From the IMG/VR virus record IMGVR_UViG_3300043446_003110: 64,000 bases of DNA; one strand, 5' to 3'. The notes under the pieces are model-generated. The model worked only from the letters and a program-made list of their open reading frames with translations, did no database searches and was not told the DNA's origin. The number at the start of each line of letters is the position of its first letter. The stretch's first letter is position 1. The position numbers and the translations under genes were made by a program. This document shows, piece after piece, positions 6,401-60,487 of this stretch. Origin of the DNA: a virus.

Positions 6401-6856
6401 AGCCTGTGCTAATACTGTAGATACTTCTAACAAATCAGATGAAGCAACACCAAATCCAGTAGAAAGATTAGTAATTTGTTTCGTTAATCCACGGAGTTGA
6501 CCAATACTTTTACCAGTTACTTGAGCAACTTTAATTAACTGTCTTTCAAAATCAATAGCATCTTGAACAGCACTTCCAAGAGTACTAGTAAATAAACTAA
6601 CAGCCCTAGTAGCAATAGAAAAAGCAGCAAACCGCCTAACAGAAAGGGCGAATGCTTTACCCATTCTTTCGGCGGCTGTAGTTGCTTGATTAGTTGCTTG
6701 AGTTACTTGCTGTATTTGACGTTGAGCCTGTGCAGAGTTTTGCACTTGTACATTTATATTAACCCCATTTAATTGGGATTGAATTTGTTGTACAATTTGA
6801 CGAACGTTATTTGGGGCTTGTAACTGTAATTGTGCGGTCAGTACGAATCTTGACAT
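452..6856 (-). CDS. Tail tape measure protein
   Basis: 2134 aa, Ala/Gly/Gln-rich helical; TMP-like N-terminal region (AIDFERQLIKVAQVTG...LAQAG); three GG..DTVPAxLxPGEFV modules; downstream of tail tube. Confidence 0.9.
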   Translation of the reverse strand: MSRFVLTAQLQLQAPNNVRQIVQQIQSQLNGVNINVQVQNSAQAQRQIQQVTQATNQATTAAERMGKAFALSVRRFAAFSIATRAVSLFTSTLGSAVQDAIDFERQLIKVAQVTGKSIGQLRGLTKQITNLSTGFGVASSDLLEVSTVLAQAGLSAEDTAVALKTLAKAALAPNFDSISETAEGAIAILAQFQEGVGSLEKQLGSINAVAGAFAVEASDLIDVIRRTGGVFKASGGSLNELLALFTSVRATTRESAESIGTGLRTIFTRIQRPKTIEFLKQFGVELVDLDGKFVGPYEAVKRLSEALSGLGEGDITFIRIAEELGGFRQIGKVLPLLQQFSTAQSALNVAMKAGDSLTQDAASAQAALAIRVMKVKEEFLALIRSVTETSTFQIMANTALSLASALIKIGDAIKPLLPMLAALSAIRLAKGMAGFFGGMMSGATSGRQYNKGGKVLGFASGGLVPGTGNRDTVPAMLSPGEFVIRKSSVNKMGAGTLAAMNENRYAFGGKARTFGIAALDGDILSKSDKLPISSIREKLGINLDKSNNKNVENTIRGVLGLKGSDLSVTAKSDTIALSDPGIKNAIYNNIKNQMYGLITSSAAALSNDTGISMRKRPINPNKVLAKVGTDSTIGSVFEGALGLLGAPFSAGKSTAAIDFPRGLGRFSAPFKTLDNMPVDAKKTSDSKKISEMLYKKIPNFFAAIVKKSPQYTTLQSQISQGRLDKLKGREFDLTEYRRITGNSKATTADLQGVANLSRKSGNRQLFTLRNLGGLIQRFATGGGVGTDTVPALLTPGEFVVNRSSAQRIGYGNLNRMNKVGKYAKGGVVQHFAAGGAATAASSSTAGIDSLDKSAKNASRSMGDVVNSNKMFAASMATSLIQGFLPAVDENSSATLKATHSFLGLITTITSVGFALEAFGIALSANQILQLFGSGAGGLGNILSNVFKGLKMGIAGQAGPMPLGGGIGSKIGSILGTKIQIPGLDKLSKTFERVGKSAMSGFSQGMKGMPGAQAYFAKNASPFMQNLSVGATTIGARAGQAIGSIKNGPIGRSVSSLKAGIGVGMNQGIGATQITRNTAGALGISGKIGQGIGSIPGLNSLTSGISSVGQSITKLGTNLKASLGPSLAVSIGFKAISGMIDSYLDYQGKLNKAISEGSVSEARKNSVESAGADAVNAFSTGLIGLSSLFGPPGVAIAGLTAGVIKLGSELPVVGPMIKSAAVNIMRGFGGNTLSSIESLAASQAGAVKTQKSLEQAQLSATQAMKDFEDGTITAVEALNRIRSSGQEATIQEQRAFKFAQQNLENRNTGGVLGYGRDVSSNLTLGFVDSVEKRNTELGKQSAEQINQAAKMRSQQFQMETGARVATIRSGFAAGKSKQDIKNQALGIGTDYDKIARMKKLSDEASRLGEAKDFVGAEAAHEAFRQLAAEVRQIDQEIANLEKEVSRSKAAFEAMNLGLRSASATSSALSADMDRFSSGLEVGGSTFISDVEYLQQALSSAAQAMDPADIQSAMKNVSANLAEFGVSEEYIKKFEGNILAFTQAQADYNKAFEIVKNTIKGKDFKGMDADDMKKKFAEELTKGLGKGVSEDAKKNLKDVIMDLELDKSDINKILMGDISVFGDKLTESQRKMLEPIEKISQERAKAEQVLIDFTKKRIESERNFVQAQQEALDLALEGREIQGKYGGPAVSYQEKRANILGKSNVEGQRLGLTNMRTGDMGELRARNAEIRGAFANIESTRTQRGGVGNKEGVVADEAQKDLQKAYKTQVDTIRGLIKLEEEQLKITQEKNKLEKESMESLVKGDIEEFFKKQSAVGATAAIATGDERLMRLYGAEALGTAALDIQRQQEAGVQTLYGQQLGGAGGLAEAAAGAALSARGVTDMRAAQVMAGTTAEEEASKSRLRELGGMLGETGQLGVDMAEMQVNTSVVNLTAAQVKFDETMARGNEAARKAQESESMPAVAKARGGLIYANRGIFVPRGTDTVPAMLTPGEFVVNRGAVQRGNNLQILQAMNGGANTSSSQNGVATMARGGRVQYFTDGGQPQAGGGGTFDNLSKFASALTNFNSELGSNIDKLSKTNISIKLDSTAVNVNLNDGGLIRAVTGQVKDEIFRLIENSFRVEDGRLKKSGNILST

Positions 6857-12062: not shown

Positions 12063-12541
12063 ACTCGACTCCATAAACATGAAAAATATCTATTTTGTCT
12101 TAATCCCATTGGAATATGTTCGCCCATTCTTTGAAATCTCATTTGTTTGATATCCAACAAATCTTTATTTACTATTAATGCTTTTGCTTTTAGTATTTTC
12201 GGAAGATCGGACATAAATCCTATGGTCTGTATTACATTATCGGGAACTTGTATTGCGCCCGTAACATTGATCCACTCTTTTGGATTCCAATAAACTTTGA
12301 GTTTAATATCAGTTAAGATTTCTACTTCTTTTATGATTTTATTGCCTCTTTCATAATCTCCATCACGAAGGCGATGAACATTAATAGAATTTTTTTCTGG
12401 AATATTGTTATGTGGACTATAAATAACTTCTTCTACTTTATCAACAGAAACTAATTGACACATAATTCCAAAAATATCAAATGTTGAATCAATAACGTCA
12501 TAATATTTATCGAATACGCTCTCTGGCACATTTACTGGCAT
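12059..12541 (-). CDS. Putative head closure/head-tail joining protein
   Basis: 160 aa; size and position in neck module. Confidence 0.4.
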   Translation of the reverse strand: MPVNVPESVFDKYYDVIDSTFDIFGIMCQLVSVDKVEEVIYSPHNNIPEKNSINVHRLRDGDYERGNKIIKEVEILTDIKLKVYWNPKEWINVTGAIQVPDNVIQTIGFMSDLPKILKAKALIVNKDLLDIKQMRFQRMGEHIPMGLRQNRYFSCLWSRV

Positions 12542-13062: not shown

Positions 13063-14912
13063 TAACACCTCCAAGAAGTAGAAATTCCATTAGAATAATC
13101 TAAAACTAAATTGGGAGAATTTTTACCAGTTAATATTTTTTCTGCCATATAATATGTATTTAATCCAATTGGAACATGATGTGATAATGATCCACGAATT
13201 TGACTGTTTATATTGTCATTACTATCAGTAGATAAAATACCAATACTATATGATGTCGGCTCACTAAAACTAGAGTATGGATTATCTATTTCTGTAAGAT
13301 TAATTCTGCTATTATTAACAGTTAACATATAATTACTATTTGGAGTTAAAGATGATATATAGTATACAGAACCATTAACAGATATTGTATCCTCTTGAAT
13401 GCCACATAAAAGATTGATTGTCATGCTATTCAAAAAAGCAATATAGGTATTCGGTATTTCTCTCCAGACATTGGAAGGACAGGTCCAAGTTCTAGACAAT
13501 GTTCTTAAAGTAGAGTATGCCAACACTTGAGTTTTATTATAGTGATTATATATATATCTATAATTATTTATATTATGAAATTTATTGCCACCTGTCGGCG
13601 GATAACCCGGATATGTTATTGGCATAACTGATCCAATGTATCTTCTAGTATTATCGCCAGATTTTACATATACACCATCTTTTATGCCGAGTTGCGTGGC
13701 TCTTTGGGTTTGGTTAGACCAAGCTACTGATTCAAAAGATATTGCGTTATTGTCTAAATAAGCAAATATATCAAATATAATATTTGCTGGATTAACTGGT
13801 GATCCGGGGGCATATAGTGTACTAACCGTTTTTGCAACCATCGAATTAAAAGATACTTGTTGCCATGAAGATCCATTATATAATGATATAATATTTCCAT
13901 TATGTGGAACAAAATATATTGTATCAGAATACCCTTCAGCAACTGAGTTTGTAGGACTTATAGATAATCTTCCATAACAAACGTTGGTTGATAGATTTAT
14001 TGATGAAATATTATTATATACAACAGCAATTTGGTCATTCAGTGCGCCAGATACGGTATCTATTTTATTATTTAACACTCCAGAAATTTGTGTAGCGACT
14101 CCAGAAACAGTTTCTCCATTTATAGTAGTAAAATATAAAGAAGATAAGTCTGGCAAATCTTCTTTTATTAAATATCTAAAAGTAGGATAGTCTGGATCGC
14201 ACGATGGATTGCACAGACCGGATGGACCGGCAAATACCATTCCGGTATTTTGCTTTTTAAGTAATATATTTTGATTTACAATACCACTCAGTTGTAATAT
14301 AGATATAAGAGGAAAGGATAATTGATTGGGTTCAAAATGAACGAATTGTATTCCACCAGAATACGATGAAGTGCCATCATTGCCAGATGGAAAATATATT
14401 CCAGAATCTCCAACAAAAAAGCCAGATGATCTGATAATAGAGTTTGCACTTAATCCACCTATGTCAATAGCATAATATGGATTGGATTTGTTGATTCCTA
14501 TGTTTCCACGACCAGAATCCACTATAAACTTATTGCTGTAAGACAAAGAGTTAGATGAAGTCCAAAAAGCTATACCACTATTTTGTGGAACTGGACTTAA
14601 ACCAGATGTATTGAAAACAGCATTTGTAGCTGGATAATTTACATATATCTCTTTGGTGCCTTCTGAAAAATTAACTATATTATTGCTATTTGTGCTTTTT
14701 ACTGGAAATCTTTGTATAGCATTTGTTGCTGACAAATATACTCCAGACCCTAGCTCATAATTAGTTCCATCATTTATGACATAAAAAAAAGAATCATTAT
14801 TGGAATAACAAGATGAGAACGTAGTAAATCCACCAACAGCACCAGACAATATTGCATTGCCTGTGCCGATTACATAACTTAATTCTTTTACTCTGTCATG
14901 CAGTTTAATCAT
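13062..14912 (-). CDS. Virion structural/fibre protein
   Basis: 616 aa; N-terminal DRVKE...YELGSG...VNFSEGTKEIYV module; GNIGIN repeat; GRLS...RRYIGS module. Confidence 0.6.
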   Translation of the reverse strand: MIKLHDRVKELSYVIGTGNAILSGAVGGFTTFSSCYSNNDSFFYVINDGTNYELGSGVYLSATNAIQRFPVKSTNSNNIVNFSEGTKEIYVNYPATNAVFNTSGLSPVPQNSGIAFWTSSNSLSYSNKFIVDSGRGNIGINKSNPYYAIDIGGLSANSIIRSSGFFVGDSGIYFPSGNDGTSSYSGGIQFVHFEPNQLSFPLISILQLSGIVNQNILLKKQNTGMVFAGPSGLCNPSCDPDYPTFRYLIKEDLPDLSSLYFTTINGETVSGVATQISGVLNNKIDTVSGALNDQIAVVYNNISSINLSTNVCYGRLSISPTNSVAEGYSDTIYFVPHNGNIISLYNGSSWQQVSFNSMVAKTVSTLYAPGSPVNPANIIFDIFAYLDNNAISFESVAWSNQTQRATQLGIKDGVYVKSGDNTRRYIGSVMPITYPGYPPTGGNKFHNINNYRYIYNHYNKTQVLAYSTLRTLSRTWTCPSNVWREIPNTYIAFLNSMTINLLCGIQEDTISVNGSVYYISSLTPNSNYMLTVNNSRINLTEIDNPYSSFSEPTSYSIGILSTDSNDNINSQIRGSLSHHVPIGLNTYYMAEKILTGKNSPNLVLDYSNGISTSWRC

Positions 14913-54007: not shown

Positions 54008-54049
54008 ATATAGTAACGGACAATGAATCCGCTACTTAAGGAGAATATT

Positions 54050-54463
54050 ATGCACAGTAAGAGAAAAGGGAATATAGGTCAGTTTGCAATAGCATTAGAA
54101 CTATCTAGATTAGGATACTCAGTTTTTACTGAGGAAGGGGATATATCAAAGATAGACATCATCGCAGAAAAAGATGGAAAACTAATAAGGATACAATCAA
54201 AAGCAATAACACCAAAAAATAATACTCTGACATTATCAGTTAAGAAAAGTGGGCCAAACTATCATTATATATATGAACAGGGTATATTTGATTTTTTTGG
54301 TATTGTAGATTTAGAGGATGGAAAGGTATACCTAGTTCCAGATAAGATATTATCAGAATATACTAGCTCTTTTGCATTAAGAAAAATACCGTCTAAGAAT
54401 AATCAAAGCAAAAATGTGCATGATGCCGCCGATTATCTTTTGGAAAAAGTCTTGACAAAGTAG
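54050..54463 (+). CDS. PD-(D/E)XK (homing-type) endonuclease
   Basis: KRKGNIG...LGYSV...IDIIAE...IRIQSK; AT-rich insert between tRNAs; AAGGAG RBS. Confidence 0.8.
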   Translation: MHSKRKGNIGQFAIALELSRLGYSVFTEEGDISKIDIIAEKDGKLIRIQSKAITPKNNTLTLSVKKSGPNYHYIYEQGIFDFFGIVDLEDGKVYLVPDKILSEYTSSFALRKIPSKNNQSKNVHDAADYLLEKVLTK

Positions 54464-57697: not shown

Positions 57698-58163
57698 CTG
57701 GTGCATGAACACTCTGACCGTTTCCCATACCGATAAGGATATGGTTCAGAAGTTTGCTGACGCATGGAATACTGGAGCAGTGTGCGAACAGTTTATTCCC
57801 AAGCCGCCAGAAGAAGATTGGTACTCTTGGAATGTCTCTAACTGGGGAACCAAGTGGGACTTTGGACTTGATAAGAACTTTGATGAACCCGTTACTGTCA
57901 AGCAGAACGGCGATAAGTATGAAGTTTGTGTTGCTCCTAACACAGCATGGTCGCCACCTATTGACTTCTATAACCATCTGGTAGAACTGGGATATAATGT
58001 TCACGCCAGTTATTTTGAGCCGGGAATGGGATTCTGTGGTATTTACCATGACGGCTATGATAACTACATTGACTATGGCGATGATAAGGATAGTATTCCA
58101 GTAGGTGTGTGGAATGACTTCGGCTTGGATGAGTTCTTTGAGATGATGGAGGAAGAAGCATGA
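57690..58163 (+). CDS. DUF1281/YubB ferredoxin-like domain protein
   Basis: MPNWC.N, WYSWNVSNWGTKWD, TAWSPP, YFEPGMGFCG. Confidence 0.8.
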   Translation: MPNWCMNTLTVSHTDKDMVQKFADAWNTGAVCEQFIPKPPEEDWYSWNVSNWGTKWDFGLDKNFDEPVTVKQNGDKYEVCVAPNTAWSPPIDFYNHLVELGYNVHASYFEPGMGFCGIYHDGYDNYIDYGDDKDSIPVGVWNDFGLDEFFEMMEEEA

Positions 58164-58570
58164 TCAAGGTACGCTATCATTTGCAAGAAGGCCAGCATTA
58201 TAAGCACTGGCAGTTCAAGGATACTAAAACTAAGGACGTATGGTATGTAAATCCTAATGATGGAATAATCACCCTCAATAACTGTGTGCTGCATAACAAT
58301 CGTAATGTGGCAGACAAGATTTATATGGGGGCTAATAAGGATGTCTGTGCATGGATCAAGTGTAAGGGCGTCATTCATAACTTCGATAAAGAGATTCCCT
58401 CTTGGTGTACGCACCTAAAGTATGACCCTAGGAAACTTCCTTACTGGCATACTTGGTCAGGAAGAAACATTGACGGTTTTGCATTTGACACTCTCTACCT
58501 TACACCTAAAGGCGTATACTACAACGAATGTAGGAATGGTATCCTAAATCCTTTGAAAATAACGACTTAG
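58160..58570 (+). CDS. Hypothetical phage protein
   Basis: VRYHLQEGQHYKHWQ...KDVCAWI...YDPRK. Confidence 0.75.
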   Translation: MIKVRYHLQEGQHYKHWQFKDTKTKDVWYVNPNDGIITLNNCVLHNNRNVADKIYMGANKDVCAWIKCKGVIHNFDKEIPSWCTHLKYDPRKLPYWHTWSGRNIDGFAFDTLYLTPKGVYYNECRNGILNPLKITT

Positions 58571-58624
58571 GAGAAACGCGGCCCGCCCCCTTGCTTCTAA
58601 ACCCTTACCAGCAAACGACTTAGA
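58543..58624 (-). repeat. 82-bp element copy 8 (inverted)
   Basis: Palindromes at 58543 and 58596, CGCGGCCCGCCCC core. Confidence 0.92.
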
Positions 58625-58685
58625 ACTAAAAAAATATTTTTAAGGTTATGGGCTTGACAGGACGATAATAGAGTGTACAATACAG

Positions 58686-59295
58686 GAGTCAAGCAAACGC
58701 TTGTTGGTTATGTCGGGCCGAGTAACCGTAAAACTGAGGATCAGTGTCCTAGGAAACGCTGGTTCTAATCGGTCAAACAATACAAACATTCGTGGGTCTA
58801 TGCTCAGGGACTAGATAAGGTTAAGCCATTACGATAAACCTACTGTCCGTCATGCGGGTCATGCGGGGTGGGGTTGACAGCGGGCTTAAACGCTGTATAG
58901 TAGTGCTTATCTATGGGGGATAGCGTCCTCACCACGATTCAATACAAGGACCATCGGTTGTACAAGCCGGAAAAAATGTGAATAGAGTTTGTTTAAGAAG
59001 GCGAATGTCTTCCGCTCTATTGTGGCCCTTACAATACAATCACACGTTGGATATTATCCTTTACTATGTATGGCGAACAGCCTAGACATTGCAATGCTAC
59101 ATGGCCGTGTGATACAATACAACCAGTAACCGTTCCCAAGAGCCAGACCAAAACGGGTCTTATGTGCTAGCAATGCCCGTTTTGCAGGGAGGATTTCCGT
59201 GGACGGTTTCCACCAGTTTTAACCTTGCTCCAAGGGTTCAAAATATCGGAGTATTGGTGGATTATAGGATCGGGGCGTAAAAGATCCGCTGGTAA
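58686..59295 (+). ncRNA. Putative array of five structured ncRNAs separated by CAATACAA
   Basis: No + strand ORF; own sigma70 promoter; 6-9-bp stems within the units. Confidence 0.6.
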
Positions 59296-59303
59296 CAAAA
59301 CAT

Positions 59304-59501
59304 ATGAAAATAACTAAACAACAAATAACCGACGCTCTTGGTATTGATAGTGATGATCTATCTAAGAAAGAACTCACTATTGCACTAAGAAATCTTGAGA
59401 ATATACTTGACGATGTTGCAGAAGATATTGAAGATGATTTTAAATCTGCTGCTTTAGGCGATGCTTCTAACCTAATCCAAATGATAAGGAACGGGCTGTG
59501 A
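59304..59501 (+). CDS. Hypothetical protein
   Basis: 65 aa. Confidence 0.65.
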   Translation: MKITKQQITDALGIDSDDLSKKELTIALRNLENILDDVAEDIEDDFKSAALGDASNLIQMIRNGL

Positions 59502-59665
59502 CCGACAAAGAAAAGGCGATGCTTAAGATTCTGAAAGTCTTGAAGAGCATGATGGGCGTCACTAATAGATTTAATCGTGAAGAAGCCTTGACTCTCGCCA
59601 AAGAGCATGGTATAACTGTGGAAGATTTGATTGATATGGCACACCAAATAGCAATGAGTGTCTAA
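59498..59665 (+). CDS. Hypothetical protein (55 aa)
   Basis: GTG start overlapping upstream stop; manual translation. Confidence 0.55.
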   Translation: MTDKEKAMLKILKVLKSMMGVTNRFNREEALTLAKEHGITVEDLIDMAHQIAMSV

Positions 59666-59940
59666 TGGAATGGATTAGTTTTCATGGGCCTCGTCGCCCA
59701 ATCAATGGTCAAAAAATCATCTATTATGGTGAGGCTATTGGTGTGTGGCGTGGGGTTTATAAGATAAACTATGAGGATAAGTTTTGTATTCATAATATCT
59801 ACTGTGAGGATGGTTGGGGAAATGTAGATTATATGGATGCTCCATGGTGGATGCCAGATTTAGGACAAGAGAAACCACAACCACCTAGTGAAGATTACCC
59901 TCCCGATTACCCTTGGATTACTAATAAGGAAAACAAATGA
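59665..59940 (+). CDS. Hypothetical protein (DUF551-like)
   Basis: MEWIS...P...WWMP pattern. Confidence 0.55.
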   Translation: MEWISFHGPRRPINGQKIIYYGEAIGVWRGVYKINYEDKFCIHNIYCEDGWGNVDYMDAPWWMPDLGQEKPQPPSEDYPPDYPWITNKENK

Positions 59941-60293
59941 TTAACGTTGGTATGACGATTCGTGAGATGGTGAGCATTGCTACTTCCACCAACAGCCCCG
60001 ATCTTTACGAGAGGATCATCAAGGCTTTGGAACTGGCTACTGGCAATGAGAAGTTGCTGGTGGCTTGCAAGGGTGTTGACTATGATGGTCAATACTGGGA
60101 TCACAAGATCGCTGCCATTAAGGTTCTGCGTCTGGCTACCGGTTGGGGACTCAGGGAGAGCAAGGATTGGGTTGAGAGTTGCCAATACGACTCCAAGACC
60201 AACTTCTCGCCTCCTCTTGATCCCGCTTCAGCACAAAAACTGTGCGACGAACTCAAGGCGTGTGGTATGGCTTGTTGGACCACTAACTCTTGA
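59937..60293 (+). CDS. Protein with ribosomal L7/L12 C-terminal-like domain
   Basis: KIAAIKVLRLATGWGLRESKDWVE resembles the bL12 CTD motif. Confidence 0.7.
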   Translation: MINVGMTIREMVSIATSTNSPDLYERIIKALELATGNEKLLVACKGVDYDGQYWDHKIAAIKVLRLATGWGLRESKDWVESCQYDSKTNFSPPLDPASAQKLCDELKACGMACWTTNS

Positions 60294-60300
60294 AGCTCGC

Positions 60301-60382
60301 CTTAAGTCCTTATCCCACAAGGATTTAGGACCAAGGCGGCGGGCCGCGTTTGCCGTAAGTCCTTACCTCACAACGACTTATG
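60301..60382 (+). repeat. 82-bp element copy 9
   Basis: Palindromes at 60301 and 60354. Confidence 0.95.
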
Positions 60383-60487
60383 ACGAATAAATATTTTTTC
60401 AAGGAACAGGGGTTGACAGGACGATATACTATGGTAGAATGATTGAAGTAATGGTTGATAACACTAACACTTGTAAGGAGTTTGATT

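Follow-up and report, generated by a model that had tools for sequence, protein, structure and literature searches.

A phage early-region array of five separately folding RNA units arranged on a conserved spacer

The array and its genomic setting

The DNA analysed here, referred to as the window, is a 64,000-nucleotide stretch of IMG/VR virus record IMGVR_UViG_3300043446_003110. Its source is an uncultured tailed lake phage with late structural genes (tape-measure protein, terminase) on the minus strand and an early region of small plus-strand genes with six tRNA genes, all six of which were found by both ARAGORN and Rfam. About 730 bases separate the stop of the ORF at 58160-58570 from the ATG at 59304; no credible ORF was found in this interval, which holds an array of five RNA units and their spacers behind a promoter of its own. 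The tRNA genes of the window stand 3.7 kb upstream and 2.3 kb downstream of the array, which contains no tRNA itself. The features of the region are listed below.

58654..58681, plus strand: sigma-70-type promoter, TTGACA-16-TACAAT (11/12 consensus matches)
58688..58777, plus strand: unit 1, leader module with a 5′-terminal hairpin (58690-58703) and a branched stem (MFE z -2.56, homologues)
58778..58785, plus strand: spacer 1, CAAUACAA (motif scan, spacer density, logo)
58790..58937, plus strand: unit 2, cloverleaf-shaped four-way junction (covariation in 27 distinct homologues)
58940..58947, plus strand: spacer 2, CAAUACAA (motif scan, spacer density, logo)
58946..59030, plus strand: unit 3, Y-shaped RNA, optional cassette (MFE z -1.96, compensatory changes)
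59032..59039, plus strand: spacer 3, CAAUACAA (motif scan, spacer density, logo)
59039..59113, plus strand: unit 4, three-hairpin RNA with an 8-bp closing stem, optional cassette (MFE z -1.65, compensatory changes)
59115..59122, plus strand: spacer 4, CAAUACAA (motif scan, spacer density, logo)
59123..59292, plus strand: unit 5, conserved scaffold with two swap-in hairpins (33 distinct copies, covariation)
59304..60293, plus strand: four small ORFs (neither promoter nor terminator between them and the array)

Isolate phages gave no match for the array region or the surrounding 24 kb (megablast and blastn, 50,697 phage records), and the terminase is only ~25-28% identical to any isolate-phage terminase, indicating a phage without a close cultured relative. 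A scan of genome contigs for the host returned seven chance matches in coding DNA and one true match, a 4.6-kb contig assigned to an alphaproteobacterial MAG from Lake Lanier; this is at best a weak hint to the host. Among the neighbouring proteins of the window, no RNA-processing or RNA-binding family was detected using Pfam and PHROGs. A PD-(D/E)XK endonuclease gene (54023-54463, plus strand) lies between tRNA-Lys and a four-tRNA cluster, a placement resembling that of the homing endonuclease segB within the T4 tRNA cluster.

Promoter, transcript and downstream genes

A sigma70 promoter had been described ahead of the array, and the near-consensus site at 58654-58681 agrees with this, with the -35 hexamer at 58654-58659, the -10 hexamer at 58676-58681 and a likely start near 58688. 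Relatives carry the same promoter type ahead of unit 1. The sense strand had also been reported to be free of ORFs across ~620 nt, and this was confirmed: the longest plus-strand ORF is 46 aa, and the ~610 nt behind the promoter hold no conserved ORF. Homologues differ by whole-hairpin replacements of unequal length, which excludes a coding reading of the region.

Since neither a promoter nor a terminator follows the array, the four ORFs downstream are probably carried on the same early transcript. This probable transcript encodes, at 59937-60293 (plus strand), a 118-aa early protein with a Pfam match (PF00542, 27.4 bits, cut-off 25.9) to the L7/L12 C-terminal domain; a ribosomal-stalk mimic encoded by a phage would be unusual. 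The transcription unit appears to end at a repeated hairpin-rich element (60295-60400, plus strand) ahead of the next promoter at 60413; the same element is present at 58560-58650, before the promoter of the array. In relatives, what comes after unit 5 is a U-run with a new promoter, further RNA modules or a tRNA. A conserved 78-aa protein (N-terminus MTVNELIEQL) is encoded no more than 1.5 kb after the array in 53 of 96 relatives (for example at 14219-14455 of locus L036), and no homologue of it was found within the window.

Folding and covariation of the units

Homologues were collected starting from a flanking ORF, which led to six related IMG/VR contigs, and motif scans then gave many more. 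By blastn, only units 2 and 5 are common to the six related contigs, where they directly adjoin one another. The motif scans placed the start of unit 5 in 43 viral contigs, unit 1 in 30 and unit 4 in 3; at least 120 metagenome contigs were added by motif scan, bringing the contigs with the unit 5 5′ motif to more than 160 in all. Unit 2 is present in 139 fetched loci, as determined by BLAST.

The expectation that the array would fold better than shuffled controls held for the individual units, with MFE z-scores for units 1 to 5 of -2.56, -1.81, -1.96, -1.65 and -1.70, and failed for the whole 616 nt (z -0.57), which was not better than shuffles on either strand. The latter result argues against one large RNA. 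The stems named for the units in the preliminary description can all be found in the sequence, and the MFE folds of the single units contain them too. Taken by itself, folding energy is weak evidence, and the comparison of homologues is decisive; compensatory changes back the folds of all five units, distributed as follows.

Unit 1: 19 distinct sequences, 7 pairs with compensatory change
Unit 2: 27 distinct sequences, 13 pairs changed on both sides
Unit 3: 5 distinct sequences, 6 pairs with compensatory change
Unit 4: 10 distinct sequences, 7 compensatory pairs, two of them in the closing stem
Unit 5: 33 distinct sequences, 8 pairs with compensatory change

On the minus strand, the invariant G-U pairs of units 1, 3 and 5 would turn into C-A mismatches, so the RNA is read from the plus strand. 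Judged by these patterns of substitution, the folds are under selection on that strand.

Unit 2 is a pseudoknotted cloverleaf

The helices of unit 2 are listed below.

58790-58795/58932-58937, plus strand: closing stem, conserved 5-6 bp
58796-58799/58808-58811, plus strand: D-like arm, 4 bp
58812-58819/58906-58913, plus strand: long middle arm, 8 bp
58822-58827 with hairpin loop 58883-58888, plus strand: pseudoknot
58916-58920/58926-58930, plus strand: T-like arm, 5 bp, abutting the 3′ closing strand

Across the homologues, 89.7% of cells in this model are paired, compared to 29-46% when the partners were slid by 1-3 columns. The middle arm opens into an ~85-nt pseudoknotted domain in which a hairpin loop pairs with an upstream strand, and this pseudoknot helix is 95.7% paired with 3 covarying pairs. 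The four-way junction with a long middle arm that had been drawn from the single sequence is therefore borne out by covariation, which places a pseudoknot in the long arm besides.

A sigma-70 promoter-like site (11/12) is present inside unit 2 at 58874-58901 (plus strand), where it coincides with the hairpin that carries the pseudoknot loop. An internal promoter was considered for this site and rejected, because relatives keep the hairpin by compensatory changes and lose the hexamers, indicating that the RNA helix is the selected feature and that there is probably no promoter here. In a further relative (L037, ~12370-12440, minus strand), a full copy of unit 2 is followed by a second, tRNA-sized miniature copy with the same closing stem, D-like arm and T-like arm and a short middle arm, which shows the pseudoknotted body to be an insertion into a frame of cloverleaf shape.

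Unit 2 resembles a tRNA in its closing stem, D-like arm, middle arm and 5-bp T-like arm abutting the 3′ closing strand, and unit 5 shares with tRNA a 5-bp hairpin stacked beside the closing stem. As a tRNA (RF00005), unit 2 was nevertheless rejected, since neither cmscan nor ARAGORN gave a match, the closing stem has 5-6 bp and not 7, there is no anticodon loop, the 5-7-nt T-like loop is non-canonical in the window and no CCA end is encoded. The units might instead be decayed or highly divergent tRNA genes, or a relative of tmRNA or Y RNA, without a function of their own, a reading that draws on the cloverleaf topology, on the T-like arm of some relatives with its 7-nt loop near the T-loop consensus, and on the position of the array between tRNA genes. 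We regard it as highly improbable, given that no Rfam match was obtained at E up to 10, that ARAGORN reported nothing, and that strong conservation with covariation in at least 27 distinct copies of unit 2 argues against decay.

Unit 5 is a conserved scaffold with a palindromic tip

Two stems, one of them closing, and a 5-bp hairpin make up the scaffold of unit 5; the hairpin has a conserved 11-nt loop and abuts the 3′ closing strand. Unrelated hairpins are accommodated at two positions, and among relatives the scaffold carries no fewer than three different inner domains. The core does not vary, and the covariation lies in the variable hairpins and in the 3′ hairpin. The tip of the first swap-in hairpin has the palindrome GCUAGC (59166-59171). 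A 6-nt palindrome was found in 24 of 37 distinct unit 5 tips, compared to 6.5 expected from shuffles, and the seven different palindromes observed include neighbours that are two changes apart and still palindromic. As a 6-nt palindrome is unable to fold on itself, this points to pairing between two unit 5 copies. The pattern thus suggests that the tip is self-pairing, and unit 5 might function as a homodimer. One relative (L047, ~6670-6770, minus strand) carries, directly upstream of a full unit 5 and in tandem with it, a minimal paralogue that shares the unit 5 scaffold but has a short inner domain.

A conserved spacer separates the units

The motif CAATACAR is present on the plus strand at 58678, 58778, 58940, 59032 and 59115, exactly where the preliminary description had placed five linkers. 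Four of these stand as linkers, but the first does not: at 58678 the motif is formed by the -10 hexamer and the ACAG behind it, ahead of the likely start near 58688, and relatives, which have other -10 boxes there, do not keep it as a spacer. With this site assigned to the promoter, the array has four true spacers and five units. CAATACAR occurs at 15 sites in the window against 7.3 expected on both strands, ten of the copies lying in the remaining 63 kb, and the window-wide expectation corresponds to ~0.03 sites in 440 nt of one strand.

In 49 distinct arrays (29 kb), AATACAA is found in 93 sense and 2 antisense copies, a density of 3.2 per kb and thus 24-fold that of the remaining parts of these loci (0.135 per kb per strand), and the spacer logo has the consensus (A/C)-C-A-AUACAA. 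Of 81 distinct inter-spacer units, 62% are closed by at least 5 uninterrupted bp within a few bases of the spacers, compared to 17% in shifted-frame controls. The phage's own compact tRNA clusters are without the AATACAA spacer. Such a spacer would stop neighbouring modules from misfolding and would give every module an identical leader and trailer.

Leader and optional cassettes

The hairpin of unit 1 begins two or three bases past the predicted start. In relatives, unit 1 directly follows the promoter without exception, and its G-U pairs are invariant. Units 3 and 4 are small branched RNAs with 8-bp closing stems that begin within or right after a spacer, that of unit 3 taking in the last two A of spacer 2, and both units are missing in most relatives. 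Unit 4 carries a 10-nt palindrome (59087-59096, plus strand), in place of which most homologues have an 8-nt palindrome; either a small hairpin or pairing between two copies is possible for this segment.

The absence of units 3 and 4 from most relatives, the same 8-bp direct repeat bounding both and the inverted repeats at their ends would also fit miniature transposon-like insertions, with terminal inverted repeats and an 8-bp target duplication, in place of functional RNAs. This is very unlikely, however, because both units are single-copy in the window, their homologues occur only inside arrays, in sense orientation and between the same spacers, and their internal and terminal stems stay paired by compensatory changes and G-U pairs. 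Furthermore, the same spacer flanks the non-optional units too and is conserved in more than 100 contigs.

Modularity and tRNAs in sister operons

The order of the array is kept among relatives as leader, unit 2, optional cassettes, unit 5 and again optional cassettes, with the optional slots filled by many different modules. Comparison of related phages shows that modules are gained, lost and swapped exactly at the spacers. The structural part of the earlier proposal, in which different RNAs fold separately within one polycistronic cassette and are joined by single-stranded spacers, is supported.

Transfer RNAs take part in such operons in relatives. In L005, a tRNA-Gly stands 13 nt upstream of unit 2 with no promoter between them, and in L028 a tRNA comes just after unit 5. 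In addition, operons with the structured RNAs were seen to hold tRNA-like genes that have canonical D and T arms and inserts of 16-32 nt, and that ARAGORN reports solely as intron-containing tRNAs.

L002, 4451-4556: insert-bearing tRNA-like gene
L005, 4451-4550: insert-bearing tRNA-like gene
L012, 2334-2421: insert-bearing tRNA-like gene
L014, 6016-6103: insert-bearing tRNA-like gene

These arrangements bear on whether the array is cut at all. It could stay uncut, its modules strung like beads, and serve as one long 5′ leader of the early transcript or as a sponge RNA. The modules would then bind host factors, titrate them, or have a stabilising or regulatory effect on the mRNA downstream, and unit 1 could act in cis on the polymerase in the manner of the put antitermination RNAs of phage HK022. 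For this window the possibility is a real one, because no terminator (and no promoter) lies between unit 5 and the ORF at 59304; several relatives have the same spacer ahead of the Shine-Dalgarno region of a downstream ORF, and the fixed first place of unit 1 after the promoter also fits a leader. In most relatives, however, what follows unit 5 is a U-run with a fresh promoter, further modules or a tRNA, and no particular gene. The tRNAs within such operons need excision, and each module has its own closing stem and moves independently. We therefore consider an uncut leader doubtful, though deserving of serious attention, as an account of the array.

Proposed processing and function

The whole of these observations is best explained by an early, promoter-driven ncRNA operon of five modules on spacers that is probably, though by no means certainly, cut into stable small RNAs. 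Its modules would be a leader with a protective 5′ hairpin, a pseudoknotted cloverleaf, two optional cassettes and a scaffold with a self-pairing tip. The primary transcript would be cut in or beside the spacers by the host tRNA-processing machinery, with RNase P acting at the 5′ side of the closing stems together with 3′ trimming or a spacer endonuclease, and cutting would free stable small RNAs early in infection, as in the T4 tRNA cluster with RNAC and RNAD. Cutting at the spacers is plausible. We infer it because the tRNAs of sister operons must be excised, because every unit is closed by its own stem and because T4 RNAC and RNAD provide a precedent; transcription, processing sites and stability are likewise deduced from the sequence.

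Host RNase P, together with 3′ processing, matures the transcript of the T4 tRNA cluster. In tRNA, RNase P recognises a closing stem that stacks on a 5-bp hairpin, and units 2 and 5 have this geometry. In units 3 and 4 the closing stem is without a T-arm-like partner, and these two units are not obvious RNase P substrates. RNase E prefers a U two bases after the cut, and the spacer is a poor match to this preference.

Our best guess is that the released RNAs would act by binding proteins of the host or the phage, and a role in protein binding or as decoys is a sensible conjecture; the antitoxin mimics against host defences that the preliminary description proposed would likewise be conjecture. 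A more elaborate proposal, which we think rather unlikely, is a combinatorial RNA-effector toolkit, with AAUACAA as the cut signal of a dedicated nuclease, protein-binding decoys or inhibitors directed at host defence or at translation factors, and unit 5 as a kissing-loop homodimer. The swappable domains of such a toolkit would sit on tRNA-like or stem-closed frames, and the partner specificity of unit 5 would be set by its palindrome.

Few structured RNAs besides tRNAs are encoded by phages, and the T4 examples have been without a known function for fifty years. The array adds no fewer than five new RNA families backed by covariation, among them a pseudoknotted cloverleaf and a scaffold that probably pairs with itself, and its distribution is wide, reaching well over 100 uncultured freshwater phage contigs. 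The organisation is unusual as well, with cassettes placed on a conserved spacer and reshuffled between phages, and this natural variation is useful for finding which parts matter, while the spacer itself is a candidate RNA processing signal. The array can be viewed as a natural counterpart of the engineered "tRNA scaffold" used for stable RNA expression. If its RNAs were effectors of anti-defence or host takeover, phages would have in them a class of weapon that consists of RNA and not of protein.

Comparison with known RNAs

That no known family was recognised at first sight agrees with the Rfam scan, in which no unit was matched: cmscan with Rfam 15 returned nothing in 58400-59500, either at gathering thresholds or at E up to 10. 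ARAGORN called no unit with introns allowed, with a relaxed score or in tmRNA mode, and tmRNA was rejected on these two results. For bacterial Y RNA/YrlA there was no Rfam match, and no TROVE (Ro60) protein was found among the 18 window proteins scanned, which cover part of the genome. A riboswitch or cis-regulatory leader was rejected as well, since the element after unit 5 varies (ORF, promoter, RNA modules, tRNA) and no Rfam riboswitch matched. A CsrA-type GGA sponge was also rejected, the frequency of GGA, from a rough count, being about as predicted by base composition.

The nearest known kind are the small stable RNAs of the lytic phage T4, RNAC (species 1, 139 nt) and RNAD (species 2, 119 nt), which are structured and are not tRNAs. 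Their genes, rnaC and rnaD, stand close against tRNA genes, at a distance of 1-6 nt from tRNA-Arg, and RNAC shows both a T arm of the tRNA type and a closing stem. Homology to rnaC or rnaD was not detected (blastn of 58570-59310, E 0.01, 50,697 phage records including T4). In contrast to the array, T4 has no described set of at least five modules with its own promoter, conserved spacer, cassette swapping, pseudoknotted cloverleaf and self-complementary tip. The function of RNAC and RNAD is still not known (PMC9697503).

A second comparison is with ROOL, GOLLD and OLE, ornate phage and bacterial ncRNAs of unknown function that are often associated with phages or tRNAs and form homo-oligomers (PMC12286853). 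The palindromic tip of unit 5, which suggests a homodimer by loop-loop pairing, is a point of likeness. However, these are single RNAs of 500-800 nt that are represented in Rfam, whereas the array is 610 nt of separable, independently occurring modules without an Rfam match.

The same data source, uncultured viral contigs, was used in the survey of Fremin and Kyrpides (2023), which reported 8,495 candidate structured RNAs in IMG/VR, many of them unnamed, tRNA-like and covariation-backed (PMC10690425). Its text does not contain the words 'array' or 'tandem'. On the comparisons made here, the number and diversity of the modules, the spacer, the swapping of cassettes, the pseudoknotted cloverleaf and the self-complementary tip appear to be new.
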